This document shows positions 1 through 14,887 of a stretch of 14,887 nucleotides of DNA, piece after piece. The notes beneath the pieces are model-generated. The model made no database searches and was not told where the DNA came from. It was given only the letters and a program-made list of their open reading frames with translations. Positions within the stretch are counted from its first letter, which is position 1. Each line of letters begins with the position of its first letter. The stretch is from a virus (taxonomy: Duplodnaviria; Heunggongvirae; Uroviricota; Caudoviricetes): IMG/VR virus record IMGVR_UViG_2617270938_000003. One strand, 5' to 3'. The translations under genes and the position numbers were made by a program.

Positions 1-11
1 GGAGCAGCAAA

Positions 12-374
12 ATGGCTAGCGAACGCAGTACTGATGTGCAGGCATTTATCGGGGAGCTGGACGGCGGCGTATTTGAAACCAAAATCGGCGCAGTTCTCAG
101 TGAAGTCGCTTCCGGTGTGATGAACACGAAAACCAAAGGTAAGGTCTCACTCAACCTGGAAATCGAACCATTTGATGAGAACCGTGTGAAAATCAAACAC
201 AAACTCTCATATGTTCGCCCGACTAACCGCGGGAAAATTTCCGAAGAAGACACCACCGAAACGCCGATGTATGTCAATCGCGGTGGTCGCCTGACTATTC
301 TGCAGGAAGACCAGGGACAATTACTGACTCTTGCCGGTGAACCTGACGGAAAACTCCGCGCAGCAGGTCATTAA
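12..374 (+). CDS. yfdP: Prophage early-region protein, YfdP-like (120 aa)
   Basis: ATG at 12 preceded by GGAG at 1-4. Length of 120 aa and position immediately upstream of a 274-aa and an HD-domain ~175-aa ORF reproduce the yfdP-yfdQ-yfdR order and sizes of E. coli CPS-53/KplE1 as I recall them. Symbol rests on that recollection, not a search. Confidence 0.5.
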   Translation: MASERSTDVQAFIGELDGGVFETKIGAVLSEVASGVMNTKTKGKVSLNLEIEPFDENRVKIKHKLSYVRPTNRGKISEEDTTETPMYVNRGGRLTILQEDQGQLLTLAGEPDGKLRAAGH

Positions 375-439
375 TATCGTTCTTAATTAACTGATTATTT
401 ATCTCATCACTGAATATCTTTATATAGTGAGGACTTATT

Positions 440-1264
440 ATGTCTCAGAACTTAGACGCAACCGCAATTAATCAAATCCATGCCCTTATTTCTGCTCAGG
501 GTGTTAATGAAATTATCAGTAAGATTGGTGCCGATGCTGTGGCATTGCCTGAGAATTTCCGCATTCATGATCTGGAAAAATTTAATTTAAATCGCTTCCG
601 TTTCCGTGGTGCGCTTTCCACTGCCAGCATCGATGACTTTACCCGTTATTCTAAAGATCTTGCGGATGAAGGCACCCGCTGCTTTATCGATGCCGATAAT
701 ATGCGTGCCGTCAGTGTGCTTAACCTAGGTACTATTGATGAGCCTGGTCACGCAGATAACACCGCCACTCTCAAACTGAAAAAGACAGCACCGTTCTCTG
801 CTCTGTTGTCTGTTAACGGCGAGCGTAACTCCCAGAAGTCACTGGCAGAATGGATTGAAGACTGGGCCGACTACCTTGTGGGCTTTGATGCTAATGGTGA
901 TGCCATTCAGGCAACAAAAGCGGCTGCGGCAGTCCGTAAAATCACGATTGAAGCAAACCAGACCGCTGATTTTGAAGACAATGACTTCAGCGGCAAACGC
1001 TCCCTGATGGAGTCTGTCGAAGCGAAGACCAAAGATATTATGCCAGTGGCATTTGAATTTAAATGCGTTCCGTTTGAAGGCCTGAAAGAACGTCCGTTTA
1101 AATTACGCCTCAGCATTATCACTGGCGATCGTCCTGTACTGGTTCTGCGCATTATTCAGCTGGAAGCAGTGCAGGAAGAAATGGCTAACGAATTTCGTGA
1201 TCTGCTTGTTGAGAAATTCAAGGACAGCAAAGTAGAAACCTTTATTGGTACTTTTACCGCCTGA
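440..1264 (+). CDS. yfdQ: Prophage protein, YfdQ-like (DUF2303-type), 274 aa
   Basis: ATG at 440 with GAGGA about 7 nt upstream. Uninterrupted 274-aa ORF with host-like codon usage; size and synteny match YfdQ between YfdP and YfdR. No catalytic motif recognised. Confidence 0.55.
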
Positions 1265-1276
1265 TTTCATTACTGC

Positions 1277-1298
1277 AAATGCCCCTGCGGGGGCATTT
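1277..1298 (+). terminator. GC-rich hairpin downstream of the yfdQ-like gene, possible weak terminator or RNA stability element
   Basis: Perfect 9-bp inverted repeat AAATGCCCC / GGGGCATTT around a 4-nt loop, 13 nt after the stop codon. Only a short T tract (TTT) follows, so intrinsic-terminator strength is uncertain. Confidence 0.3.
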
Positions 1299-1391
1299 AT
1301 GGAAACGTAATTGACTCAATAATCGCCGGATGGTGAGGGCTTTCTTTTACCAGAATTCAGCGCGGTGCAGCGCATATACGTGGAGAACAAA

Positions 1392-1916
1392 ATGTCATTT
1401 ATTAAAACTTTTTCCGGGAAGCATTTTTATTATGACAGGATAAATAAAGACGACATCGTTATTAACGATATCGCGGTTTCTCTTTCAAATATCTGTCGCT
1501 TTGCAGGACATCTTTCACATTTCTACAGCGTCGCCCAACATGCGGTGCTTTGCAGCCAACTGGTACCGCAGGAATTTGCTTTTGAAGCGTTAATGCATGA
1601 TGCAACAGAAGCGTATTGCCAGGACATCCCGGCGCCACTGAAACGCCTTCTTCCTGACTATAAACGGATGGAAGAAAAAATAGACGCCGTAATCCGTGAG
1701 AAATACGGGTTACCCCCGGTTATGAGTACGCCCGTGAAATATGCCGATCTCATCATGCTGGCAACCGAACGCCGCGATCTCGGGCTTGATGATGGCTCTT
1801 TCTGGCCCGTACTGGAAGGTATCCCGGCAACAGAGATGTTCAAAGTTATTCCACTGTCGCCAGGCCATACCTATGGGATGTTTATGGAACGCTTTAAAGA
1901 GTTAACTGAGTCGTAA
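1392..1916 (+). CDS. yfdR: HD-domain phosphohydrolase, YfdR-like (5'-deoxynucleotidase family)
   Basis: ATG at 1392 with GGAG 6 nt upstream; the track ORF begins at GTG 1365, and GTG 1380 would give 178 aa. The protein carries an H...HD metal-binding signature (AQHAVL ... LMHDATEAY) typical of HD hydrolases, and follows the yfdQ-like gene. Confidence 0.6.
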   Translation: MSFIKTFSGKHFYYDRINKDDIVINDIAVSLSNICRFAGHLSHFYSVAQHAVLCSQLVPQEFAFEALMHDATEAYCQDIPAPLKRLLPDYKRMEEKIDAVIREKYGLPPVMSTPVKYADLIMLATERRDLGLDDGSFWPVLEGIPATEMFKVIPLSPGHTYGMFMERFKELTES

Positions 1917-2024
1917 AAATCAGCACGTACGAATTCAAACTCTGCCATAAAAGAACATATAAGTAATTTATTAACATATAGATATAGGTTATATTACAAA
2001 TTGAAAAATTATTGGAGAGCAACA

Positions 2025-2891
2025 ATGAATCAAAATCCATTCTCATTCTATGACTTTCTTGGATATTTAATACCAGGTGGTTTTTTTATCCTATTAATGT
2101 ATTTCTGTGGTTTGACATTCGATCTAGATATTGTTATTGACTTAAGTGAATTGCTCAGAGGTCAAAGTCAAATCTTTGGCATTTTGAACTACGCTTCAAT
2201 AGTTATTATATCTTATATAGCTGGACATTTTATTTCTATCACGTCAGCATTTTTTATCGAAAAATACATGAATAAAGAATTAGGATATCCTTCCAAATAT
2301 CTATTTAAAAAATTGATAGATACCTCAGAAAGCATTTGTAGCCCATCCTGCGATGAGAGAAGCGCTGATAAAAAAACAAAAATAAAGAATCGCATAATCA
2401 AATGCGTATTATGTCCAATAATACTATGGGATTTTATAACACAAAAACTATGTTATTCTCAATCTCTACCATTTCATTTAGCTAATACAACATGGTTAAT
2501 GATCAAAGAAGGTTATGAGAAAAAGTTCATAACAAATCGCCAATTATTACAAGATAAAAACGGACTTGATGATGATCTCTTCAGATTGGCATATCATTAT
2601 GTTTATGAGTTTTCAAAACAACATCAAACAAAAATTCAAAACTATGTTGCATTATATGGTTTTTGCAGAAACATATGTTTAATCTTTATAATTTCATTTT
2701 GGGTATCAGTTCCAACCTTTATTTATCGATTATGTACTCATAGTGATTATCTTTATAGTTTACTTTCAATAATGCTTAGCTTTTTCTTCGTCTATGTTTT
2801 CTATGTTGGTTTTGTTAAATTTTATAGAAGATATACTTTAGAAGTATTAATGGCATTTGCTGTACTTCAAAGTAACGACATTATTCGTTAA
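2025..2891 (+). CDS. AT-rich polytopic inner-membrane protein of unknown function (prophage moron candidate)
   Basis: ATG at 2025 with GGAGA 6 nt upstream; the track ORF starts at TTG 2001. About four to five hydrophobic helices (e.g. FFILLMYFCGL, IVIISYIAGHFISITSAFFI, ICLIFIISFWVSVPTFIY, LSIMLSFFFVYVFYVGFV) flank a charged central segment. Codon usage is markedly more AT-rich than the flanking yfdR-like and xis/int genes. Confidence 0.6.
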   Translation: MNQNPFSFYDFLGYLIPGGFFILLMYFCGLTFDLDIVIDLSELLRGQSQIFGILNYASIVIISYIAGHFISITSAFFIEKYMNKELGYPSKYLFKKLIDTSESICSPSCDERSADKKTKIKNRIIKCVLCPIILWDFITQKLCYSQSLPFHLANTTWLMIKEGYEKKFITNRQLLQDKNGLDDDLFRLAYHYVYEFSKQHQTKIQNYVALYGFCRNICLIFIISFWVSVPTFIYRLCTHSDYLYSLLSIMLSFFFVYVFYVGFVKFYRRYTLEVLMAFAVLQSNDIIR

Positions 2892-2932
2892 TAATGTTGC
2901 TCCCGTGTGCAGACGGGATAATGGAGAAACGT

Positions 2933-3139
2933 ATGCTGAACCTCGATTGTGTTCCTATCTCAACTTATTGCAAAGAAACTGGCGAAACTCCTGAAGCAAT
3001 AAACAAACGTGTACAGCGCGGTGTTTGGCGTGAAGGTGTTCAGGTTTTAAAGGTTGAAGGCGTTAAGGAGAGGTGGATTGATCTTAGTGAGGTTGCAAAA
3101 TGGGCCAGACAAAACTGCTCAAACTACCGCGCGGCGTAA
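2933..3139 (+). CDS. Putative excisionase / small DNA-binding recombination directionality factor
   Basis: Small basic ORF directly upstream of, and overlapping by 40 nt, a tyrosine integrase gene. ATG at 2933 has GGAGA 5 nt upstream; alternative starts at 2894 and 2921. The W/R-rich C-terminal half (RGVWREGVQVLKVEGVKERWIDLSEVAKWAR) looks like Xis-type winged-helix proteins. Assignment is from position and composition, not a confirmed match. Confidence 0.5.
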   Translation: MLNLDCVPISTYCKETGETPEAINKRVQRGVWREGVQVLKVEGVKERWIDLSEVAKWARQNCSNYRAA

Positions 3140-4272
3140 CAATCAGGAAACACCGCCAGGGAGAAACGATCAATATAACTTTCACCTACAAAGGAGTTAG
3201 ATGTCGTGAGCCGCTTTCCAATCTGGAAGTAACACCAAAGAACATTAAATACGCCGAGCGTACACTCGGCGAAATCCATAATAAGATCGAAAGGGGAACA
3301 TTCATTTATGCAGAATATTTTCCCCGTTCTGCTCGTTTGAAAATTTTTGGTAATGCTGCTGCAGGCAAAACGGTAAAGATGTACCTGGACGAATATCTTG
3401 AAATCTGCGAAACAAGAAAACTTTCACCCTCTACGATTGGTGGCTATAAAAAATGCCGTAGTGCGTTAGCCTCACTTCACATTTGCCCTGCAAGTGAATT
3501 AACACCAGCAACCCTGAAAGCGTGGATTCAAAGCCAGAAAACAACCTTAAAAACCATTCGCAACCAGTTATCTTTCCTACGGTCAGCACTTGATGAAGCC
3601 GTGACCGATGGGGTACTTCAAATTAACCCCGTATCGTTAGTAACAGCTTCGCGCTACCAAAGTGATAAGTCAGAAGCAGAAAGCAGCTATGTGGTTGATC
3701 CGCTATCACCAGCAGAAGTTGATGCATTACTAGCAGCAGCCGGAAACAAACAATGGGAAAATCTGTTCCGGTTCGCCATACATACAGGCCTGCGTAGTTC
3801 TGAATTATGTGCCCTACGATGGCATGATATCGACTTTGTTGGAAAAACAGCCCATGTTCAGAGCGCAAGTGTTGTCGGAGTTATCAAAGGAACAAAGACA
3901 AAAGCCGGTACCCGTAAAGTTGAACTGACTGAAGAAGCAATGTTGGCGTTGATAAACCAGAAGCCATTTACATTCATGAAGGATGCTACTGTCTTTGAAG
4001 ATCCAAAGACCAATAAACCCTGGGCAAGTGCTGATGCAATTAGGAAAAAAGCATGGGTGCCAACATTGCGAAAAGCAGGTATTCGTTACAGAAACCCATA
4101 TCAAACCAGGCATACATTCGCCCCCAGCCATATCAGCCGGGGAGCAAACCTGTTTTGGCTTGCGGCTCAAATGGGCCATAAAGGGCCTGAAATGTTATTC
4201 AGGCACTATGGACAATACTTGAAAGAGTATGATGGGAGGGCAAGTATCAAGGATAAAAAGGCTTTATTTTAA
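3100..4272 (+). CDS. Phage tyrosine integrase (site-specific recombinase, lambda-Int superfamily)
   Basis: 390-aa ORF with GAGG 8 nt upstream. C-terminal catalytic signature of tyrosine recombinases is present: TGLRSSEL (box I Arg), HxxR in NPYQTRHTFA, and the nucleophile region GHKGPEMLFRHYGQY. The N-terminus resembles arm-binding domains. Confidence 0.85.
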   Translation: MGQTKLLKLPRGVTIRKHRQGETINITFTYKGVRCREPLSNLEVTPKNIKYAERTLGEIHNKIERGTFIYAEYFPRSARLKIFGNAAAGKTVKMYLDEYLEICETRKLSPSTIGGYKKCRSALASLHICPASELTPATLKAWIQSQKTTLKTIRNQLSFLRSALDEAVTDGVLQINPVSLVTASRYQSDKSEAESSYVVDPLSPAEVDALLAAAGNKQWENLFRFAIHTGLRSSELCALRWHDIDFVGKTAHVQSASVVGVIKGTKTKAGTRKVELTEEAMLALINQKPFTFMKDATVFEDPKTNKPWASADAIRKKAWVPTLRKAGIRYRNPYQTRHTFAPSHISRGANLFWLAAQMGHKGPEMLFRHYGQYLKEYDGRASIKDKKALF

Positions 4273-4881
4273 GTCATTATGCCAATCGTCTACTGTTTGA
4301 AACCAAATTTTTAACCTTTGCATAAAGGTACGATCCTTTTTGGGAGGATGGTACCTTTGAAAAGAAGTATGTAACGCTTCGATAACTCCCATACAAGCAT
4401 CAATTACTTCTTGTGCTTTAACCGGGCGATCGGCATCTGAAAGCTTGTGAGCGACCTCACAATCCAGAGTTGCTTTCTCTAGTACAGATGAGAACACCTC
4501 GTCAGGTATATACAGTCCTCTGCTTTCCAAAATGCAAATCAGTTTGGAAACTTGTTGAGCTTTAGCCAAGATAGTTAACAAGTATGAAACAGAAGCCTTT
4601 GTTCTATCCTTTTGCAACCTTAACAATCGATGCTTTGATGCTCTAATTTTAGGTTGAGTTGTCTGACTGAGCCAATAGTTAGAAGAAATATCAGAAATTT
4701 CAATAACTAACTTTGAAATAGCATCAATAATTGATTTCGATTCAGAACGTGTCGCCAGTTTTACAGAATTATTGTACGCAACTCGCCATCCAATGAAAAC
4801 TAAGCAGACGCTAACTACTGTGATACACCACGAATACTGTCCTATTTGTGCTACTAATGACATTGGTTCCGTACTGATCAA
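4264..4881 (-). CDS. Single-pass membrane protein, third gene of a GHKL-ATPase/STAS-like operon
   Basis: One N-terminal transmembrane helix (YSWCITVVSVCLVFIGW) followed by a soluble domain of about 170 aa. Probable TTG start at 4881 with AAGAGG 6 nt upstream (ATG alternative at 4863). A 10-nt gap separates it from the upstream gene; its 3' end overlaps the integrase stop convergently. Confidence 0.55.
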   Translation of the reverse strand: MISTEPMSLVAQIGQYSWCITVVSVCLVFIGWRVAYNNSVKLATRSESKSIIDAISKLVIEISDISSNYWLSQTTQPKIRASKHRLLRLQKDRTKASVSYLLTILAKAQQVSKLICILESRGLYIPDEVFSSVLEKATLDCEVAHKLSDADRPVKAQEVIDACMGVIEALHTSFQRYHPPKKDRTFMQRLKIWFQTVDDWHNDLK

Positions 4882-4891
4882 CTATCGCCTC

Positions 4892-5218
4892 TTATACTCT
4901 TTCTGGTTGTGCTAAATCAATAAATTTATCAATCTGTTCTTTGTAGAACGGAACATCACTTTTTATAATCAAACGTGCTTTAACGTTGGCTTTAGGTATC
5001 CCTTCCTTACGGATGAGACCTCCAAACGCCTCTTCTAAGAAAGAGGAACCAACACCCAGTGCTATACCGCGAAAATCAACCACAATCTCCTGTTCAGTAC
5101 CCTTCAGCGCAGGCACCAAAAACTCTCTACGAAATCTTTCCGCACTGTGTGGGCTATCCGTTGTGTAACGTCCGAAAGGTGTTCTGGAGAACTCCTTCGC
5201 TATGACGATATTTCTCAT
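4892..5218 (-). CDS. Small STAS-like (anti-sigma-antagonist-like, DUF4325-type) protein
   Basis: 108-aa ORF; ATG at 5218 with AGGAGA 7 nt upstream, lying inside the end of the upstream GHKL gene. The motif VVDFRGIALGVGSSFLEEAFGGL resembles the STAS/DUF4325 core. Fold assignment is from motif resemblance only. Confidence 0.55.
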   Translation of the reverse strand: MRNIVIAKEFSRTPFGRYTTDSPHSAERFRREFLVPALKGTEQEIVVDFRGIALGVGSSFLEEAFGGLIRKEGIPKANVKARLIIKSDVPFYKEQIDKFIDLAQPERV

Positions 5219-5222
5219 AAAA

Positions 5223-6134
5223 TCATCTCCTGGGAACCAGCGACCATTGTAGTAAAGTACCCGGTATGTACTCAGCTAGCTTCTCACATCGAGGACTACT
5301 GTCATTAGAATTATAGCTATAACGAGCCCTTCCTGTTAGTATCAGAAGTGTCTCATTATCCTCACAACCTGCCCCAATAGGTCTCTTGATATCTTCAGAG
5401 CCATTTCCCCGTCCGGAACCAACAAAGCGGGATTCCCCTACTAACATAGCTCTTTCCACAGAAGATACTTCGTTTTGAATGCTATGACCATCACCATTAG
5501 GCACGAAACTTCTATAAATCCCCAATCCAAGGTCACAAACGATAAAAACGACTTTATTTTCATCACGATTGAACCAAGCGCACTGCCACCATCGTTTACC
5601 TTTGAGAAGCTGAATATCTGACTCGAACCCCTCATCTTCATACGCATGATGAGAAACATTGAGCAAAGCTTCACTAATCGCTGTCAGCAGTAAGCCTAAC
5701 TGTTCATTATTAAGCAGAGCACTTTTCTGCAGCATGAGTACTGTTTCAACAATATGCTCGTAAGGTTCGACAGCTGACTGAAAGTATCGTTCCTCCCTCG
5801 TAAGTGCATTCAGTTTCTCTTCTGTGCCAGCAAGCAAAGCACGAGCAAGTCCAGTACCAACGATCCATCTATGCCCAGATGGGTTATCATCCTTTTTAGG
5901 CCATTTAAAACGTATAAAATTAGGGTCCCGGGTTAAAAATTGAGCTCTATTTACTATGGCAAAGAACAGTACCGATGCCGCAGCTGAGGCAAATTTTACC
6001 TTGGACAAATCAACTATAACTCGACCTTTATTTTTTACTCCAATCGATTCAATCGAGTTGATGAAGTTCAATGTCCCAGCCCTAGAATCATCTGAGTAAA
6101 TGCAAAATTTGCTTGGGGGTACCAGTATGGTCAT
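5223..6134 (-). CDS. GHKL-superfamily (HATPase_c) ATPase/kinase-like protein with N-terminal extension
   Basis: 303-aa ORF. All three Bergerat-fold motifs were read directly from the minus strand: N-box EALLNVSHHAY (5640-5672), G1 box DLGLG (5520-5534) and G2 box GSGRGNG (5400-5420). Residues 40-56 (VDLSKVKFASAAASVLF) resemble the STAS phospho-acceptor region. No strong SD at the ATG. Confidence 0.7.
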   Translation of the reverse strand: MTILVPPSKFCIYSDDSRAGTLNFINSIESIGVKNKGRVIVDLSKVKFASAAASVLFFAIVNRAQFLTRDPNFIRFKWPKKDDNPSGHRWIVGTGLARALLAGTEEKLNALTREERYFQSAVEPYEHIVETVLMLQKSALLNNEQLGLLLTAISEALLNVSHHAYEDEGFESDIQLLKGKRWWQCAWFNRDENKVVFIVCDLGLGIYRSFVPNGDGHSIQNEVSSVERAMLVGESRFVGSGRGNGSEDIKRPIGAGCEDNETLLILTGRARYSYNSNDSSPRCEKLAEYIPGTLLQWSLVPRR

Positions 6135-6286
6135 AGCGATGTCATTCTTATACGATGGATTTATAGATTATCTACTATTCATAGTTGGTTATGAAGACTG
6201 GGATATAACAGTAAAAGATACGTGTAAGATCCGCAAGATAGTTAATGTCGAAAAAAATCATTAATTACATCAAGTTAGTGATATTT

Positions 6287-6318
6287 GGACTCGGGTTCAA
6301 CTCCCGCCAGCTCCACCA
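6287..6318 (+). other. att core: copy of the 3' end of tmRNA (ssrA) without the rest of the gene
   Basis: GGACTCGGGTTCAACTCCCGCCAGCTCCACCA. The last 27 nt are identical to the 3' end (T-arm, acceptor stem, CCA) of E. coli tmRNA as I recall it; similarity decays upstream. The ~345 nt of tmRNA that should precede it are absent, since that space is intergenic and a protein-coding gene. Confidence 0.75.
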
Positions 6319-6352
6319 AATATTGATGTACTGAAGTTCAGTAAAGTCTACT

Positions 6353-6387
6353 AAGCCCGCACAGCACAAGCTCTGCGGGCTTTTTTA
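6353..6387 (+). terminator. Rho-independent terminator downstream of the tmRNA 3'-end copy
   Basis: Stem AAGCCCGCA / TGCGGGCTT (9 bp) with a 12-nt loop, immediately followed by TTTTTT at 6381-6386. Confidence 0.6.
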
Positions 6388-6484
6388 CGTCTATTGTAGT
6401 CTAGTGAGAATTGCTGAGAACTACGAGTTATGGCACCCTGAATGGGACCCACGAAGATGGGTCCTAAAATCGAGGGTCCCAAAC

Positions 6485-7714
6485 ATGGCCAAAATCGCTA
6501 AGAAGCTCACTGACACTGAAATCAAAAGCACCAAACCTGCCGAAAAAGAGGTTAACCTTTTTGACGGCGATGGTTTGCTGTTGCGAATCGCTCCCCTGGC
6601 GAAGGGAGGGAAGAAAAATTGGTATTTCAGATATGCAGTGCCTGTGACCAAAAAGCGAACTAAGGTGAGCTTAGGAACCTATCCTCACCTTACACTTGCG
6701 AAGGCACGAGCTTTACGTGATGAATACTTGTCGTTGCTTACAAATGGTATAGACCCCCAAGTTCATAACAACCAAAAAGCCAATGCACTGAAAGATGCCA
6801 CGGAACATACATTTCAAGCAGTAGCCAAGAAGTGGCTTGATGAGAAAGTCAAAACGTCAGGCATCTCCCAAGATCATGCTAACGACATCTGGCGAAGCCT
6901 AGAGAGAAATATCTTTTCCACATTGGGTGATACCCCAATTAAGGAGATTCGCCCTAAAATGCTTAAACAGCATTTAGAACCCATAGAAAAACGAGGTGTC
7001 CTTGAAACACTTCGCCGCATCATATCCCGCCTGAATGAAATTTTCCGCTATGCAGCAACAGAAGAACTCATAGAATTCAACCCGGCAGACAACCTGGGGC
7101 AACGGTTCAGCAAGCCAAAAAAACAGAATATGCCAGCATTACCCCCTTCCGAACTCCCTCGCTTCTTGGTTGCTCTAAACAATGCTTCTATCCGTTTGGA
7201 AACAAGGCTACTGATTGAGTGGCAACTTCTCACATGGGTTCGCCCAGGTGAAGCTGTTCGCACAAGATGGTCAGATATTGATATTGAAACTGGCATGTGG
7301 AACATCCCGGCGGAGTTTATGAAAATGAAGAAGCCTCACAAAGTTCCACTGAGCAAAGAAGCTTTGCGAGTTTTGGATTTAATGAAAGTCATCAGCGGGC
7401 ATAGAGAGTGGGTGTTCCCCAGTATCAAAGCTCCACTCAATCACATGCATGAACAAACAGCTAATGCGGCCATAATCCGTATGGGTTTCGGAGGTGAGCT
7501 TGTAGCTCACGGTATGCGATCCATTGCTAGAACGGCTGCTGAGGAGTCTGGCAAGTTTAGGACTGATGTCTTAGAAGCCGCCCTTGCCCACTCGAAGAAA
7601 GATGAAATAATTGCAGCCTACAATCGTGCAGAGTATCTCACTGAACGGGTGGTTCTCATGCAATGGTGGAGTGACTATGTTTCGTCTCAAAAATGCAAAG
7701 TTATTGCCGCATAA
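6485..7714 (+). CDS. intA: P4-type tyrosine integrase, IntA-like (CP4-57 family), tmRNA-associated
   Basis: From ATG 6485 (GAGGG upstream) the protein MAKIAKKLTDTEIKSTKP...NLFDGDGLLLRIAP...WYFRY...TKKRTKVSLGTYP aligns along its length with E. coli IntA as recalled (LTDTEIK, DGDGL, DIWRSLER, ALETLRR, KKNMP, MQWW). It sits immediately 3' of an ssrA 3'-end sequence as in E. coli. The track ORF starts at GTG 6404. Confidence 0.85.
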   Translation: MAKIAKKLTDTEIKSTKPAEKEVNLFDGDGLLLRIAPLAKGGKKNWYFRYAVPVTKKRTKVSLGTYPHLTLAKARALRDEYLSLLTNGIDPQVHNNQKANALKDATEHTFQAVAKKWLDEKVKTSGISQDHANDIWRSLERNIFSTLGDTPIKEIRPKMLKQHLEPIEKRGVLETLRRIISRLNEIFRYAATEELIEFNPADNLGQRFSKPKKQNMPALPPSELPRFLVALNNASIRLETRLLIEWQLLTWVRPGEAVRTRWSDIDIETGMWNIPAEFMKMKKPHKVPLSKEALRVLDLMKVISGHREWVFPSIKAPLNHMHEQTANAAIIRMGFGGELVAHGMRSIARTAAEESGKFRTDVLEAALAHSKKDEIIAAYNRAEYLTERVVLMQWWSDYVSSQKCKVIAA

Positions 7715-7776
7715 CTCTCCCATGATGGATTAACTATCTTGATTTAGTTAAAGAATTAATAATCACACCATTAACC

Positions 7777-7826
7777 TATGTGGACTAAGCATAGCCATTT
7801 ACAAATGGGGACATTGAGTCCACATA
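7777..7826. repeat. 50-bp two-fold symmetric site (nested inverted repeats around a central AC dinucleotide)
   Basis: TATGTGGACT-aagcatag-CCATTT-AC-AAATGG-ggacattg-AGTCCACATA. Outer 10-bp arms are perfect reverse complements, as are the inner 6-bp arms; both share the same centre (7801/7802). It lies in the intA / serine-recombinase intergenic region, about 170 bp upstream of the recombinase start. Confidence 0.6.
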
Positions 7827-7996
7827 ACGAAAGCTGTCGGTCATATCAGCTAAATAATTCACATCTCTTCTCGATTATCATACACCTCGAAGATCTACCA
7901 AATTCGCTCTAATCAATGATAAAACAGTTGAATTCGGTTAAAATTTGATCAATTTTATCCTCTACATTGTATTGAATCACCCATGAGGTTTCGTGC

Positions 7997-9553
7997 ATGG
8001 CTAGCGAAAATGACAAAAATCATAGAGTTAGGGTCGCGCAGTACTTGAGGATGTCTACCGACCATCAGCAATATTCTTTACATAATCAGTCCGAATATAT
8101 CAAAGATTATGCTGAAAAGAACAATATGGAAATCGCTTATACCTACGATGATGCAGGTAAGAGCGGAGTCAGTATCGTAGGCAGGCATTCTTTGCAGCAG
8201 TTACTTAGCGATGTAGAACAAAAGAAAATAGATATACAGGCTGTATTATTTTATGATGTGAGCCGTTTTGGTCGTTTTCAAAATAGTGATGAAGCGGCAT
8301 ATTATTCCTTTCTATTTGAGAGAAATGGTGTAGATCTTATATATTGTTCCGAACCTATACCCACTAAAGATTTCCCTTTAGAGTCCTCTGTTATACTGAA
8401 TATAAAAAGATCTAGTGCTGCATATCACAGCAGGAATTTATCTGAAAAGGTATTTATAGGGCAAGTAAATTTAATAAAGCTTGGTTATCATCAAGGCGGT
8501 ATGGCTGGTTATGGGCTGAGACGTCTTTTAGTAGACGAAAATGGCATAGCTAAAGAAATATTGAGTTTCCGCAAAAGAAAGAGTATTCAAACAGATAGGG
8601 TAATATTAATTCCGGGACCAAAAAATGAAATAAAAATTGTAAATAGAATATATGATCTCTTTATAGATAATAACGTCCCAGAATTCATTATTGCTGAGAG
8701 ATTAAATGAACAGAACATACCTGCAGAAAATGGAACATTATGGACTCGTGCAAAAATACATCAAATTTTGACAAATGAAAAATATATTGGAAACAACATA
8801 TATAACAAAACCTCATCTAAATTAAAAAGTAGGCTTGTAAAAAACCCCAAACATGAATGGGTTAGATGTGACAAGGCATATAAACCTATTATTTCAAAGA
8901 AAAAATACAATAAAGCTCAAGAAATAATTCAGCTCCGATCCATTCATTTGACTAATGAAGATCTATTAGAAAAACTAAAACAAAAATTAGAATCTAATGG
9001 AAAACTATCAGGCTTTATCATTGATGAAGATGATACAGGCCCTTCATCTTCTGTTTATAGAACCCGATTTGGTGGTCTTTTAAGAGCATATACTTTGATT
9101 GGTTATAAGCCAGAACATGATTACAGCTATCTCAAAATAAATGAAGCACTAAGATCATTTCACTCAGAGATAATTGAGGATTTTAAGGGTGAAATTTTAA
9201 AAAGTAACTGTCATATAGACGAGTATAAATATGCCCCAATGCTTTACATCAATGATGAGTTTTTAATTTCCATCCTTGTTACTAAATGCATACATATGAA
9301 ATCAGGTAAACTTAGATGGAAAGTCCGGTTTGATAACTCACAGAAAGCAGACATAACAATTGTTATACGAATGAATTCACAAAATATTTCACCTCTTGAT
9401 TTTTATATCATACCAAAGATTGAAAACGAATATAATAAAATGTGTATGACGGAAACAAACAACATTCGATTAGATCTCTATAGATTTGATAATCTTGATA
9501 AACTTCTACAAATTATTACTCGCATGAAAGTGAGGGAACTATATGCTGCCTGA
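7997..9553 (+). CDS. Large serine recombinase (resolvase/invertase catalytic domain plus recombinase domain)
   Basis: N-terminus RVAQYLRMSTDHQ matches the serine-recombinase active-site motif (YxRxSTxxQ, nucleophile about Ser20, codon near 8054). Resolvase-like block ...DDAGKSGVSIVGRHSLQQLL...VLFYDVSRFGR and recombinase-domain-like block GYHQGGMAGYGLRR...LWTRAKIHQILTNEKYIGN follow. No classical CxxC zinc-ribbon seen in the C-terminal third. GAGG 8 nt upstream of ATG; very AT-rich. Confidence 0.8.
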   Translation: MASENDKNHRVRVAQYLRMSTDHQQYSLHNQSEYIKDYAEKNNMEIAYTYDDAGKSGVSIVGRHSLQQLLSDVEQKKIDIQAVLFYDVSRFGRFQNSDEAAYYSFLFERNGVDLIYCSEPIPTKDFPLESSVILNIKRSSAAYHSRNLSEKVFIGQVNLIKLGYHQGGMAGYGLRRLLVDENGIAKEILSFRKRKSIQTDRVILIPGPKNEIKIVNRIYDLFIDNNVPEFIIAERLNEQNIPAENGTLWTRAKIHQILTNEKYIGNNIYNKTSSKLKSRLVKNPKHEWVRCDKAYKPIISKKKYNKAQEIIQLRSIHLTNEDLLEKLKQKLESNGKLSGFIIDEDDTGPSSSVYRTRFGGLLRAYTLIGYKPEHDYSYLKINEALRSFHSEIIEDFKGEILKSNCHIDEYKYAPMLYINDEFLISILVTKCIHMKSGKLRWKVRFDNSQKADITIVIRMNSQNISPLDFYIIPKIENEYNKMCMTETNNIRLDLYRFDNLDKLLQIITRMKVRELYAA

Positions 9554-10439
9554 AAAAAATGAATTCCCAATAATTCAAATTGAGATTGCAAAAATAAAAT
9601 TTCTTAACCCACGAACAAGAAATAAGTTAGTGCATGAAGAAATAAAGGAAAGCATAAAAAAAAGAGGATTAAGCAAGCCTATAAGCGTAAGAGCTATTGA
9701 TGAAGGCGATTTCAAATATGCTTTAATTTGTGGTCAAGGGAGAATAGAGGCTCTCGTTGCATTAGGTGAAACTATTATTCCAGCAATTATAAGAGATGTA
9801 TCAGAAGAAGATGCTTACGTTATGAGTTTAGTTGAAAACATTGCAAGGAGAAGACCACGTTCTAATGAGTTATTACAGGTGATTAAAGACATGAAAATCA
9901 GAGGACTTTCAGACTCCGAAATAAGTGAGATTACTGGATATTCATCGAACTGGGTGAGCAGTATTAATATGCTACTTGATAAGGGAGAGCATAAACTTCT
10001 CTCAGCAGTCGAACGGGGTAATTTGCCTCTGTATCTCGCAGTGCAATTTGCAAGATGTGAAACTGAGGAAGCACAAGATATTCTTACCGAAGCATATGAT
10101 AAAAAATTAATAAAAAGTCGGGACATTATAAAGATAAAACACATTCTAAATCAAAGAACAGTTGGGAATAAAGGTGCAAAAGCAGCCGGATTTTATTATC
10201 ACAAACCATCAAAAAGGATGACTGCAGAGGAGTTGATTGAGCTTTATGAAAATAGTATCGCTGAACATAAATCTGTTTATAACAACTCAAAATTCATAAA
10301 AACCAACCTACTAATAGTAAATGAGATTTTTAACATCATAATGATGAATAAAAGCTTTCAACATATACTTGAACAAGAGAATCTTTCAGAACTACCATCT
10401 CAGATATTAACCCCAGTAAACAAAGAGGTATTAAAATGA
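9543..10439 (+). CDS. ParB/Srx-fold protein with HTH (ParB-like N-terminal domain), 298 aa
   Basis: Collinear with the chromosomal ParB N-terminal domain: ...NPR..., GQGRIEA at 9732-9752 (ParB GERRxRA-type arginine motif), IPAIIRDVSEEDAYVMSLVENIARR (ParB box ENLQR-like), then an HTH-like LSDSEISEITGYSSNWVSS. Start overlaps the recombinase stop by 11 nt, with GAGGGA 6 nt upstream. Confidence 0.75.
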   Translation: MLPEKNEFPIIQIEIAKIKFLNPRTRNKLVHEEIKESIKKRGLSKPISVRAIDEGDFKYALICGQGRIEALVALGETIIPAIIRDVSEEDAYVMSLVENIARRRPRSNELLQVIKDMKIRGLSDSEISEITGYSSNWVSSINMLLDKGEHKLLSAVERGNLPLYLAVQFARCETEEAQDILTEAYDKKLIKSRDIIKIKHILNQRTVGNKGAKAAGFYYHKPSKRMTAEELIELYENSIAEHKSVYNNSKFIKTNLLIVNEIFNIIMMNKSFQHILEQENLSELPSQILTPVNKEVLK

Positions 10440-11332
10440 TTCAGATACGTTTTGGCGATAATTTTATTTACCTGGAAACTAATAAGTTAATTCCATCTAA
10501 GGAATTATTAGAAAACGTAAAGCGAAGCCATAAATATCATCAAATAGTTACCTCTATCGAAAGCTTAGGTATTATTGAACCAATAATAGTATTCTATGAC
10601 AAAGATAAAGATGTCACTAAGATACTTGATGGCCATTTAAGGGTTGAGGCTTTAAAAGACTTAGGTATAGAAAAAGCTCCATGTATACTTTCGAGCATAG
10701 ATGATGCTTTCACTCCTAACAAACAAGTGAATCATATAAATGTAGTTGAAGAACATAGAATGATAATTAAGTCTCTGGCAAAAGTATCAATTGAAAAACT
10801 TAGTGCTGCTTTGGGCATATCTGTTGATGCCATAAAAGATAAAGCGAATGTGATGAACGGCATAGATCCAAGTGTAATTGCGAAACTTTCTGATAAACCT
10901 ATACCTAAGGCTACATTTGACGTTTTGAGGAAAATGAAGCCAATTCGCCAAATTGAAGCAGTCGGTACAATGATTAATTTTGATAATTATAGTAAAAAAT
11001 TTGCAATGAGCATCTTGGATGCAACACCGGCATCGATGATAGTAAATAAAGGGAAAAACACTCCCTATAAAAAGGATATAAAAAAAACCATACTTCGTCT
11101 GGAACAAGAAATGGCAACAACTTCGGAAGAAACGAAAAAGCTTCAAACCGAGTATGGTTCAGATATGTTGAAATTCGTTATAATCCAGTCATATATTAAT
11201 AAATTACTTGGCAATTCTAAAGTTCTTCATTGGTTCTTAGAAAACGAGGTTGATTATCTTAATGAGTTAAAAAGAATTTCTAGAATAAATTCTTTGGATG
11301 ATAAGACTCTTACTGAAAACAGCAAGTCATAG
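10436..11332 (+). CDS. Second ParB/Srx-fold protein, divergent paralogue-like, 298 aa
   Basis: N-terminal segment IIEPIIVFYDKDKDVTKILDGHLRVEALKDLGIEKAPCIL (DGHLRVEA at 10628-10651) has the ParB/Srx arrangement of a beta-strand, Gly/Arg motif and hydrophobic helix. ATGA start/stop overlap with the upstream gene, AGAGG SD. Same length as its neighbour. Confidence 0.6.
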   Translation: MIQIRFGDNFIYLETNKLIPSKELLENVKRSHKYHQIVTSIESLGIIEPIIVFYDKDKDVTKILDGHLRVEALKDLGIEKAPCILSSIDDAFTPNKQVNHINVVEEHRMIIKSLAKVSIEKLSAALGISVDAIKDKANVMNGIDPSVIAKLSDKPIPKATFDVLRKMKPIRQIEAVGTMINFDNYSKKFAMSILDATPASMIVNKGKNTPYKKDIKKTILRLEQEMATTSEETKKLQTEYGSDMLKFVIIQSYINKLLGNSKVLHWFLENEVDYLNELKRISRINSLDDKTLTENSKS

Positions 11333-12560
11333 TCATGTTTTATATAGCCTAAATAAACCAAGAAGTATACTTACACAACGACCTTCACGCCGAAGAAGCT
11401 GTCAGATACGCCAGCAACCAAAGCATTACGTTTAAGTGTCAGTCATTGATACGAAGGGATAACTGCGTATCAGCAGCCGGACATTGAGTCGAATAAAGGC
11501 TGGTAGAGAGGGACAGTTCTGTGTCACCGGGAGATTCGTCAGAAACATCAGCGGCAGAACAGATGAACCAGCAATTGGTAGTGCACAGAAAACTCTCCAG
11601 TATTTAATTATTCAACTTAACACTAAAAAAAATCACATATTTAATATCATAATTTTTCTTTGGTCTACGTATGCGAGAGTTATTGTGGCTTTAACCGGGT
11701 ATTAGGAGTCGTTTCAGATAAAAGATGTTCTTCGATTCGACTGGACTTGGTAATAGCAATAAGTAATCGTTAATATTGAAGGACGAAAGGCTACTTCAAA
11801 ACAAAGTAACCTTTCCAATATTCCCATCTATGGGACAAGTGGTACATTAACTGCACATAGTGCAGGATACATATGACATAAAACTTTTTATTTATGGCAT
11901 ACATTATAAATAACTTGTATTTTATGAATGTCAATAGGTTCTTGTTTAATACTTTTAAAATAATTAATTGATTGTTTTTATTATAGCTTCGCTTGTACAA
12001 GCGAAGATCCTATTGTTCTTGAATGAATAATGCCAATTATAAGAGAAGCAAGGGCTAACTCTGCGAAGCCGCTGCGCTTGCTTCTTCGAGTTCCCCTTGC
12101 TTTTCTGCCCTTCGGTTAGAAAAGAAGCCAAACTGCTACCAACCTTGAATCTCTATATTTTTGAATAGACAAACATTACCCGCTCCCTTAATCACCACTA
12201 TCAAACATAAAAAATCATCTTACAAATAACCCCATACACATCATTTTAGATTGCGACCTTATTAAATTAAAAATTCAACCTTAGATGGAATTTAATGTAC
12301 AAGGAGTGTCCTACTGTAACGGAGAATTTTAAACATTAAAAATTACAACTATGGTTTGTCATAGCCTGTACATCTATTCACCTCATGCATATGCACTAAG
12401 AAAGCTTTTTTGAATACTGGAGTTGTCCCTGCTAAAACGGACACGGCTAATTAACTGCTAATATGGCATCACGATATTCGCGTGGCGATTTCATGTTCAA
12501 CCCCTTGTGTGGATGCAGATTATTATAATCCTCTATCTATTCTGCCATTGTTTCCATCAT

Positions 12561-12767
12561 TTAGACTGCATCCAGCAGATCATCTACGTACACATAATCC
12601 CGCTTGAACGTCTTTACAAACGATTCTGCCATGCCGTTACTTCCCGGACTGCGTACTGGTGTAGTACACACGATGAACCACAGTGAACTAGCGAATGTGC
12701 GCGTGGCATCGGCTGTGCAGCAATTATGCCAATGACACTGGCTCCATTGACGGCAATGACCTGACAT
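12561..12767 (-). pseudogene. Remnant of an IS3-family (IS2-group) transposase orfB
   Basis: Translation ...TRTFASSLWFIVCTTPVRSPGSNGMAESFVKTFKRDYV matches the DDE-glutamate region of IS2 InsD (...[38 protein letters not shown]...) as recalled. The reading frame is only 68 codons, with neither the N-terminal catalytic region nor the normal C-terminus intact. Confidence 0.6.
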
Positions 12768-12927
12768 CTACAATCCCGCTACAAAGCATTTACTCCATGA
12801 GTCATTGCACTTGCTGAGCTACACGAACACACTAAAACCAGATAATAATTAATCGCTGTATAAGCTCGTAACAAGCGGAACTTTAAGGCAAAATAGGGCC
12901 ATCTTCCACCTTCACAAAGTTACGCTA

Positions 12928-14475
12928 ATGGCCAGAAAACCTAAAGAAATCAAAACAGACCCGTTAGAGGTCATCCTGTGGAAAGCGGCTGACAAGCTAC
13001 GTAAGAACATTGATGCAGCCGAGTACAAGCATGTCGTGCTGGGCCTGATTTTCCTTAAGTATATTTCTGATTCTTTTGAATCTCATTATGAGTTGCTGAA
13101 GGCTGGTGAAGGCGAGTTCGCAGGCGCTGACCCGGAAGATAGAGACGAGTACACCGCTTACAACATTTTCTTTGTCCCTGAGCTTGCACGCTGGAACTAT
13201 CTAATATCTAAGGCAAAGCTACCCGAAATCGGTAAGCTGGTTGATGATGCTATGGAGCTTATCGAAGCGGGTAACCCACAGCTAAAAGGTGCGCTGCCGA
13301 AAGTCTACGCTCGCCAGAACCTCGACGCAACTGTGCTGGGTGAACTGATAGATCTGATTGGCAACATTGCACTGGGAGATGCCAAAGCGCGTTCTGCTGA
13401 TGTATTAGGCCACGTATTCGAATACTTCCTTGGTGAATTTGCACTGGCAGAAGGCAAACAGGGCGGTCAGTTCTATACGCCAAAATCCATCGTAAGCCTG
13501 CTGGTTAACATGCTGGAACCCTATAAAGGCCGAGTCTTTGACCCTTGCTGCGGTTCCGGTGGTATGTTCGTTCAGTCAGAAAAATTTGTTGAAGCGCATC
13601 AGGGAAATATTGACGATATTTCGATTTACGGTCAGGAATCCAACCAGACCACCTGGCGTCTGGCAAAAATGAACCTGGCTATCCGGGGTATCAATTCAGA
13701 ACACGTCCGCTGGAACAGTGAAGGCTCATTCCTTAACGATGCCCACAAAGATCTAAAATCTGATTTTATCATTGCCAATCCACCGTTTAACGTGTCTGAC
13801 TGGTCCGGTGAGCAGCTTCGTGGCGATGCCCGTTGGCAATACGGTATCCCACCTACCGGGAATGCTAACTTTGCCTGGATGCAGCATTTTCTGTATCACC
13901 TGTCGCCAAAAGGTCAGGCTGGTGTTGTACTGGCAAAAGGGGCTTTAACATCTAAAAGTTCTGGTGAAGGTGATATCCGTGCCGCACTGGTAAAAGATGC
14001 CAATGTGATTGACTGTATCGTAAATTTACCTGCAAAACTGTTCCTGAACACCCAGATCCCTGCGGCGTTATGGTTTATGCGTCGTGATCGTGAAAATAGC
14101 AGCCAATATCGTGATCGCAGTAAAGAAATTCTGTTTATTGATGCCCGGAATTTAGGCCATTTAATTAATCGTCGAACCAAAGTCCTGTCTGACTACGATA
14201 TTAAAACCATAGCCGATACCTACCATAACTGGCGTAACAAAGGTGGCGACTACGAAGACGTCGCTGGTTTCTGTGCGTCAGTAGACATTGCTGAAGTTGC
14301 TAAACTCGATTATGTGCTGACACCTGGCCGTTATGTTGGTCTTGCTGATGAAGAAGACGATTTCGACTTTAAAGAACGCTTTACGGCTCTTAAAGCTGAG
14401 TTTGAAGCGCAACTGGAAGAAGAGGCGCGTCTGAACAGAGCCATCGTTGATAATCTGGCGAAGGTGGTTTTATGA
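12928..14475 (+). CDS. hsdM: Type I restriction-modification system DNA methyltransferase subunit HsdM
   Basis: 515-aa ORF with the N6-adenine methyltransferase motifs: AdoMet-binding motif [13 protein letters not shown] and catalytic motif IV NPPF ([12 protein letters not shown]). Typical HsdM N-terminal helical region and acidic coiled C-terminus; stop overlaps the next gene's ATG (ATGA). Confidence 0.9.
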
Positions 14476-14518
14476 GTAGGTGGAGAAATTTTTGTATAAC
14501 TGAATTAGCAGATTTTTG
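14472..14518 (+). pseudogene. hsdS: 5' stub of hsdS (type I specificity subunit) truncated by IS1 insertion
   Basis: ATG at 14472 overlaps the hsdM stop, with AAGGTGG SD upstream. It encodes [16 protein letters not shown] and then runs straight into the IS1 terminal sequence at 14519, hitting a stop seven codons later. Confidence 0.6.
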
Positions 14519-14887
14519 GGTAATGACTCCAACTTATTGATAGTGTTTTATGTTCAGATAATGCCCGATGACTTTGTCATGCAGCTCCACCGATTTTGAG
14601 AACGACAGCGACTTCCGTCCCAGCCGTGCCAGGTGCTGCCTCAGATTCAGGTTATGCCGCTCAATTCGCTGCGTATATCGCTTGCTGATTACGTGCAGCT
14701 TTCCCTTCAGGCGGGATTCATACAGCGGCCAGCCATCCGTCATCCATATCACCACGTCAAAGGGTGACAGCAGGCTCATAAGACGCCCCAGCGTCGCCAT
14801 AGTGCGCTCACCGAATACGTGCGCAACAACCGTCTTCCGGAGACTGTCATACGCGTAAAACAGCCAGCGCTGGCGCGATTTAGCCCC
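14519..14887 (-). mobile_element. IS1 insertion sequence (partial; continues beyond window end)
   Basis: Begins with the characteristic IS1 terminal sequence GGTAATGACTCCAACTTATTGATAGTGTTTTATGTTCAGATAATG. The following DNA is the reverse complement of the insB end of IS1; the encoded protein ends ...[23 protein letters not shown], as in IS1 InsB. Confidence 0.9.
14534..14887 (-). CDS. insB: IS1 transposase InsB / InsAB' C-terminal portion (5' part lies beyond the window)
   Basis: Minus-strand frame encodes ...[88 protein letters not shown]. The frame stays open upstream to the window edge. Confidence 0.85.

Follow-up and report, generated by a model that had tools for sequence, protein, structure and literature searches.

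An orphan tmRNA 3' end at the probable junction of a phiNP-like prophage remnant and a P4-type integrase island in Escherichia coli

Why would the last nucleotides of the tmRNA gene ssrA stand without the rest of the gene, ahead of an integrase gene? The question is raised by positions 6287-6318 of a stretch of 14,887 nt (the whole of which is called the window here), filed as viral DNA and in fact part of the E. coli chromosome. An earlier note, made from the letters of this DNA, had read the orphan tmRNA tail as the junction of two tandem mobile elements at ssrA, and both the nearest genomes and the empty sites described below agree with that reading. Very probably, a phiNP-like prophage has integrated at ssrA, and the orphan sequence is the duplicated att core lying between two stacked elements.

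The segment 6287-6318 (GGACTCGGGTTCAACTCCCGCCAGCTCCACCA) matches the last 32 nt of E. coli ssrA at 31 positions of 32, the sole mismatch being T6291, which is G in ssrA. The block of exact identity with the ssrA 3' end covers 6292-6318 (27 nt); with A6319 it extends to 28 nt, since an A also follows the CCA at the intact gene. The claim that only the last 27-32 nt or so of tmRNA are present was borne out by searches for the remainder: ARAGORN found no tmRNA gene in the window, Rfam gave no tmRNA match there at gathering thresholds, and a permissive Rfam run yielded a partial tmRNA (RF00023) match ending at 6318, with 21.9 bits against a gathering score of 47. As both ARAGORN and Rfam at gathering thresholds were empty, a complete tmRNA or second ssrA gene in the window was rejected. 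The sequence just upstream is accounted for in the way the earlier note had described, 6135-6286 being intergenic and 5223-6134 being protein-coding, with a minus-strand open reading frame represented in RefSeq as WP_000154254.1.

An origin by decay, from an ssrA gene that had been duplicated or truncated, or by chance match, in either case unrelated to att, would fit the presence of the 3' end only and the weak, partial Rfam match. The probability of such an origin is close to negligible, given that the ssrA 3' core occurs once across the window at up to three mismatches and that none of 200 dinucleotide shuffles produced a match, while remnants of the tmRNA 5' part were not detected upstream by ARAGORN or Rfam. 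Moreover, the exact block spans the published 25-bp att sequence of phage phiNP, its left flank is a conserved phage P arm and its right flank is the left end of an island, and the same ssrA-tail scar recurs at other junctions. The duplicated core (6292-6319, plus strand, an exact 27-nt match unique in the window) is at once attR of the left element, a prophage, and attL of the right element, an island with a P4-type integrase.

The exact source of the window was absent from the complete E. coli genomes compared. The nearest genomes were those of strain 13C1079T, with 99.6% identity over window positions 1-11565, and strain WL164, which covers 96% of the window with 98.6% identity; both are 100% identical to the window over 5200-7800. 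In these two strains the array is ordered as smpB, intact ssrA, a prophage remnant, a second identical core and the P4-type integrase gene, followed by a serine recombinase gene, two ParB-like genes and then strain-specific island genes, which in WL164 include a type I restriction-modification (R-M) system, like the window. The far end of the array carries ypjA', pinH', ypjC, ileY and ygaQ. The intact ssrA of the tandem strains is a 363-nt gene with the tag ANDENYALAA (ARAGORN), and its end is identical to the core at 6292-6319. From one core 3' end to the next, the distance is 19,030 bp in 13C1079T and 19,559 bp in WL164. The search for a complete ssrA and for more copies of the core, proposed in the earlier note, was carried out in these genomes and located smpB-ssrA 19.0-19.6 kb upstream of the scar. 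An intact ssrA had been predicted upstream of position 1, and in 13C1079T it ends 12,713 nt before the equivalent of that position. Both the intact ssrA and the left end of the prophage lie outside the window, and the model rests on genomes that are 98.6-99.6% identical to it.

The left side of the junction had been taken for the end of an integrated prophage plus a cargo operon, and the gene content (xis, int, a three-gene cargo, P arm and core) supports this. The window opens with a lambdoid-type early-left region (1-2891, plus strand) comprising yfdP, yfdQ, yfdR and an AT-rich gene for a 296-aa protein, as assigned from RefSeq annotation of the 99.6%-identical 13C1079T locus and from open reading frames. 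It is followed by the gene for a 68-aa excisionase (2933-3139, plus strand; PHROG 2917, E=7.7e-44), which also matches phiNP xis at the DNA level, and by that for a 390-aa tyrosine integrase of the phiNP type (3100-4272, plus strand) with the Pfam domains Arm-DNA-bind_2, Phage_int_SAM_5 and Phage_integrase. In 13C1079T, the left part of the remnant encodes a type II restriction endonuclease, a DNA cytosine methyltransferase and a GIY-YIG protein; next come an invertase pseudogene, ClpP and tail-fibre fragments, then rusA, replication genes and a cI/cro pair, and, at the right end, yfdPQR, xis, int, three minus-strand genes and the core.

The 296-aa gene, located between yfdR and xis (2001-2891), lies in a region of about 30% GC (2001-3000). 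It belongs to PHROG 12528, for which no function is assigned, had no Pfam match, and was matched weakly in PADLOC by Csx27 and tm_4, both membrane proteins. Its appearance is that of an accessory gene, rich in AT, within the early-left operon.

The Citrobacter phage phiNP is the closest described system. It excises precisely, forms virions and lysogenises E. coli K-12, where it inserts into ssrA as in C. rodentium (Petty et al., 2011; PMC3072379). Its att is a 25-bp sequence, which is duplicated on integration with reconstitution of ssrA (Magaziner et al., 2019; PMC6456863). The integrase of the window is 91% identical to that of phiNP over 387 aa, and window positions 2902-4235 are 83% identical to phiNP DNA. 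The order xis-int-cargo-core is shared, the cargo in the phiNP record being an AAA ATPase gene and another, unannotated open reading frame, and so is the 25-bp core GGTTCAACTCCCGCCAGCTCCACCA, which is included in 6292-6319; window 6294-6318 is the reverse complement of the att as published, TGGTGGAGCTGGCGGGAGTTGAACC (PMC6456863). The phiNP record has the core at both its start and its very end, and the approximately 125 nt after the core at its start (P' arm) are homologous to the sequence right after intact ssrA in 13C1079T and WL164. Both ends of the 19-kb stretch are therefore of the phiNP type, so that the DNA between the two identical cores is one element, a degraded phiNP-like prophage remnant of which the window holds the right end. 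Several differences from phiNP were also found. First, the E. coli element has CGGG where phiNP has CTGG, which gives it a block of identity with E. coli ssrA of 27-28 bp. Second, other cargo lies between int and att. Third, the element in the nearest genomes is a 19-kb remnant without head, tail and lysis genes. Finally, the neighbouring island is not CP4-57. By analogy, a phiNP lysogen of K-12 carrying CP4-57 at ssrA would show the same layout of phage, repeat and P4-type island.

A much fuller prophage of the same family was found in strain H1827/12, where the part of the locus retrieved includes genes for portal, terminase, lysis and Q; this prophage shares the xis-int pair, carries a different, single cargo gene, and lies ahead of the same P4-type integrase gene. 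The prophage integrase of the window is situated at the scar end of its element, away from ssrA; ssrA phages of the phiNP and P2 types normally have it there, and the tandem model is unaffected.

The P arm of the prophage att site (6135-6291) is conserved over its last 100 nt or so before the core among the window, H1827/12 and phiNP. Upstream of the exact block it shows further, imperfect similarity to ssrA. Within it, a promoter scan pointed to 6195-6167 on the minus strand as a promoter-like site from which the cargo operon could be transcribed. The motif GATACG..AAG..CCGC (6217-6234) is kept by three elements of the phiNP family in their P arms, and a similar motif recurs in the P' arms (13C1079T locus, about 2180-2200), which makes it a candidate arm-type binding site of the integrase. 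The ssrA terminator contributed by the prophage is located in the P' arm, about 120-150 nt past the CCA.

Sequence resembling a phiNP-type P' arm, about 150 nt long and including a terminator, directly follows ssrA in 13C1079T (locus 2090-2250) and at equivalent positions elsewhere. It was found right after ssrA in 2,528 of 5,426 complete E. coli genomes, CFT073 included; the 3' trailer and terminator of ssrA are therefore phage-derived in nearly half of E. coli.

To the right of the core, the left end of the P4-type island (6320-6484, plus strand) is identical to the post-ssrA sequence of strain BLR(DE3) and contains an intrinsic terminator, a hairpin with a T-run, at 6353-6386, which serves ssrA in strains without the prophage. 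Thus each element supplies its own terminator for ssrA. The terminator is followed by the gene for a 409-aa P4-type tyrosine integrase (6485-7714, plus strand) with the Pfam domains Arm-DNA-bind_3, Phage_int_M and Phage_integrase. A terminator and then an IntA-like integrase had been recognised here in the earlier note. The protein scores 444.6 bits with the NCBIfam model PRK09692 (cutoff 434) and is 48% identical to IntA of K-12; it is a member of the IntA family and not the CP4-57 orthologue. The same integrase accession, WP_001062342.1, is common to BLR(DE3), GmF046, H1827/12, 13C1079T and WL164, and the layout, integrase after terminator, is that of ssrA-intA in K-12.

Rfam also matched the small RNA IsrM (RF02763) to window 6309-6386 (E=1.3e-11). 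An IsrM gene was rejected, as the two share the terminator only: the alignment scored 46.3 bits against a gathering score of 376, and the aligned part of the 329-nt model was limited to its 3' terminator and to 8 nt of its 5' end (these overlap the tmRNA tail), 272 internal positions being absent from the window. The match suggests that, in Salmonella, IsrM has its end at the corresponding, homologous terminator in a related island at ssrA.

The rest of the window (7997-14887, plus strand) is further island cargo, assigned from Pfam, the PADLOC MTase_I model and the annotation of WL164 and GmF046. It includes genes for a large serine recombinase (7997-9553, Pfam) and two tandem ParB/RepB-like proteins (9543-11332, Pfam), and hsdM of a type I R-M system (12928-14475, PADLOC MTase_I) followed by the start of hsdS. 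The recombinase and the two ParB/RepB-like genes (7997-11332), with a GC content of about 30-37%, lie directly after the P4-type tyrosine integrase gene and are conserved as a trio in GmF046, H1827/12, 13C1079T and WL164; in BLR(DE3), the part of the locus retrieved reaches only the recombinase. The presence of two unrelated recombinases in the island hints at a nested element. The 1.6 kb or so that follow (11333-12927) contain no open reading frame of at least 80 aa, and the corresponding region of GmF046 carries the annotation of an integrase-core pseudogene of IS type. The identity of 13C1079T to the window stops at the equivalent of position 11565, the insertion point of an IS3 element in that strain.

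The junction sequences show how the parts fit together. In BLR(DE3), where the prophage is absent, the end of ssrA reads ...GGACGCGGGTTC...CCACCA and is followed by AATATTGATGTACTGAAG... In the tandem strains, the left junction reads ...GGACGCGGG...CCACCA followed by ATCATGATTGGACGG..., and the scar reads ...GATATTTGGACTCGGG...CCACCA followed by AATATTGATGTACTGAAG... In the alignment, the right flank of the scar is thus the sequence directly 3' of intact ssrA in BLR(DE3), and its left flank is the phage P arm, with the similarity to ssrA broken at T6291. In the proposed mechanism, Xis and Int of the prophage (2933-4272) would recombine the chromosomal ssrA 3' end with a phage attP in which this end is present as a copy. 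Integration would rebuild an intact ssrA at the far left, now trailed by the phage P' arm and the phage terminator, and would leave the phage P arm and the second core at the right end, against whatever formerly followed ssrA. Here the former neighbour would be the P4-type island, whose left end gives the terminator at 6353-6386. The array would then be read in reverse order of arrival, the island having come first and the prophage later, and excision of the prophage would restore a junction of ssrA with AATATTGATGTACTG. The xis and int genes and both cores are intact, while in the nearest genomes degradation has left about 19 kb of the prophage; judged by its sequence, it may still be able to excise.

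The junction alone leaves the order of arrival unfixed. We infer that the island preceded the prophage because genomes with ssrA joined to the island are abundant, because an empty-site strain with 99.9% identity is available, and because of the phiNP experiments in K-12. The survey covered 5,426 complete E. coli genomes. The left end of the island was found in 1,153 of them and was joined directly to ssrA in approximately 983, the rough difference leaving about 170 carriers with something in between, typically another element. The arrangement after the scar had been described in the earlier note as that seen after intact ssrA in E. coli, and the same sequence indeed occupies this position in the approximately 983 genomes. 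Strain GmF046 has smpB-ssrA joined directly to the island, with 99.9% identity to window 6283-14887 and with the same integrase accession. When related strains without the element were compared, as had been proposed, BLR(DE3), GmF046 and these genomes provided empty sites for the prophage.

In the opposite order, the phiNP-like prophage would have come first and the P4-type island would have entered the orphan core later, as a secondary attB. The orphan does hold the whole short core of P4-type ssrA islands, as the CP4-57 feature of K-12 starts 15 nt before the end of ssrA and the K-12 fragment psaA, a 14-nt copy, is consistent with such a short core; in addition, genomes where the attR of a phiNP-like prophage abuts something other than this island show that a prophage-first state is possible. 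We nevertheless consider this order unlikely in view of the prevalence of the island directly on intact ssrA and the small number of carriers with something in between. Furthermore, phiNP has been integrated experimentally into ssrA of K-12 derivatives (PMC3072379, PMC6456863), and MG1655 has CP4-57 directly after ssrA; the island, without an intact right repeat in the nearest genomes, also looks old and fixed.

The last alternative concerns the place of the event. The whole array, or the prophage with its flanks, could have been imported from another strain by homologous recombination following transduction or conjugation. The flanks, ssrA on one side and the island on the other, are nearly identical across many E. 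coli genomes and would offer long homology for allelic replacement, and the exact combination of cargo and junction was found in only five of the 5,426 genomes (at 100% or 88.9% identity). Import, which we hold to be quite unlikely, shifts only the place where integration occurred; the structure still requires a phiNP-type integration. That a phiNP-like prophage integrated at ssrA thus stands for either place. Arrays of this kind are common: a 32-nt probe for the ssrA end hit 6,487 places in the 5,426 genomes, about 1,060 of which are extra copies, with up to four places per genome, and recurring stacks elsewhere consist of a phiNP-like prophage followed by a CP4-57-type or P2-like element.

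The earlier note had also predicted a further att repeat downstream of the window, and this held in part. In the 13C1079T and WL164 loci, no other downstream copy was found at up to three mismatches of 27 nt; a 10-mer search detected one decayed copy of 17-18 nt, between pinH' and ypjB/C, 16.4-21.5 kb past the scar (CTGCCAGC-CCACCAAATA at 37481-37498 of the 13C1079T locus and CCGCCAGCTC-AACAAATA at 42795-42812 of the WL164 locus). A downstream copy thus exists, but it is not an intact repeat and probably represents the junction of an older island, since remnants of ypjA' and pinH' separate it from the P4-type island of the window. Its left flank resembles the right end of CP4-57 (P4-type), and its right flank matches the P' arm of the P2-like ssrA phage Cartapus at about 55 of 62 nt. 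In both strains IS3 abuts a truncated ypjA and a psaA-type junction is missing, and the right junction of the island itself has apparently been lost beside IS3. In the nearest genomes the island has no recognisable right-end repeat, and its bounds as a currently mobile unit are not set. A synthetic empty site, in which the 3' end of ssrA was continued by the right flank of the decayed copy, was found in none of the 5,426 genomes at a coverage of at least 80%. The reading of this flank as native chromosome was rejected, as about 62 nt at its start come from the P' arm of a P2-like phage of the Cartapus type; the search is therefore not a valid empty-site test.

The same stack can be followed in K-12. 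In MG1655 the order is ssrA, CP4-57, psaA, a remnant of a phiNP-type P' arm, ypjA, pinH', a P4-type right end, the same decayed copy, a remnant of a P2-type P' arm, ypjB, ypjC and ileY. This order suggests that ypjA-pinH is the remnant of a phiNP-like prophage in a four-layer stack. The third ssrA 3' fragment of MG1655 (CTGCCAGCCCACCAAATA, NC_000913.3 2,783,468-2,783,485), between pinH and ypjB, is apparently unannotated; it has a CP4-57-like right end on its left and about 62 nt of a Cartapus-type P2-like P' arm on its right.

The closest annotated counterpart of the scar is psaA (b4645) at the right end of CP4-57 in K-12, likewise an orphan ssrA 3' fragment that separates a P4-type ssrA island from the element after it, and followed by the phiNP-type P' arm remnant. 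Unlike the copy in the window, which is a perfect 27 nt and belongs to a phiNP-type phage as attR and to a P4-type island as attL, psaA has 14 nt with a 1-nt deletion and is attR of a P4-type island. The tmRNA 3' end is also used as attP by P2-like (Peduoviridae) ssrA phages, such as Cartapus of Escherichia and RE-2010 and SopEPhi of Salmonella, whose records match window 6283-6322 at 95%. Cartapus carries 47 nt of the ssrA 3' end beside int plus cargo, and P2-like phages stack with phiNP-like prophages at the same site. They represent another family with other arms, whereas the flanks in the window match phiNP-type and P4-type elements. In other bacteria, tandem genomic islands at ssrA are said to have been described by Williams in 'Traffic at the tmRNA gene' (J Bacteriol, 2003). 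The vinyl-chloride islands of Dehalococcoides (PMC3146451) are tandem islands at ssrA as well, but in other organisms and with other integrases and cargo.

The slot between int and att of the prophage is filled by a three-gene cassette on the minus strand (4264-6134), whose products were described by Pfam and by PHROGs of unknown function. They are a 303-aa GHKL-ATPase-like protein (5223-6134; weak HATPase_c_2 match in Pfam, PHROG 3364), a 108-aa STAS-like protein with the Pfam domain DUF4325 (4892-5218), and a putative membrane protein of 205 aa with a hydrophobic N-terminus (4264-4881). In the 303-aa protein, the motifs E155..N159..H163 (N-box), D201-x-G203-x-G205 (G1) and G243-x-G245 (G2-like) are invariant in 41 homologues. 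Its predicted structure, a confident model with pLDDT 86.7, combines an N-terminal alpha/beta domain with a GHKL ATPase domain; among PDB folds only GHKL ATPase domains matched it, all weakly, and a sequence search of the PDB gave no match. Its homologues form 162 clusters, mostly from Enterobacterales, none with a functional name, and tblastn gave no match in the phage collection. The 205-aa protein had one insignificant match to PDB sequences (E = 0.51), none of the cassette proteins matched PADLOC or NCBIfam models, and the literature search on DUF4325 returned mentions of the domain and no reported function.

The trio is conserved as a unit (38-70% identity); other phiNP-like prophages carry it in their int-att slot, and it also occurs in another prophage context in Yersinia. 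In related phages the slot holds other accessory genes. By analogy with pairs of anti-sigma kinases and STAS proteins, the cassette could be a partner-switching module. Tentatively, we consider that it may be an undescribed prophage-borne module of this kind that acts in phage defence or superinfection exclusion and possibly moves as a unit between unrelated prophages.

In itself the scar is an att duplication of the textbook kind, at a hotspot that is well known. The arrangement is already known: experiments have characterised the phage family responsible for it, and K-12 has a comparable scar, psaA, in its annotation. No new mechanism is revealed, and the most interesting by-product is the uncharacterised cargo cassette. 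The use of the finding lies mainly in annotation: the border between two mobile elements is fixed to the base pair and each integrase is assigned to its element, which helps to delimit prophages and islands, with the int-att slot as a place of accessory cassette exchange. For E. coli, it presents the ssrA locus as a multi-layer stack of phiNP-, P4- and P2-type elements, the junctions of which persist as tmRNA-tail scars.
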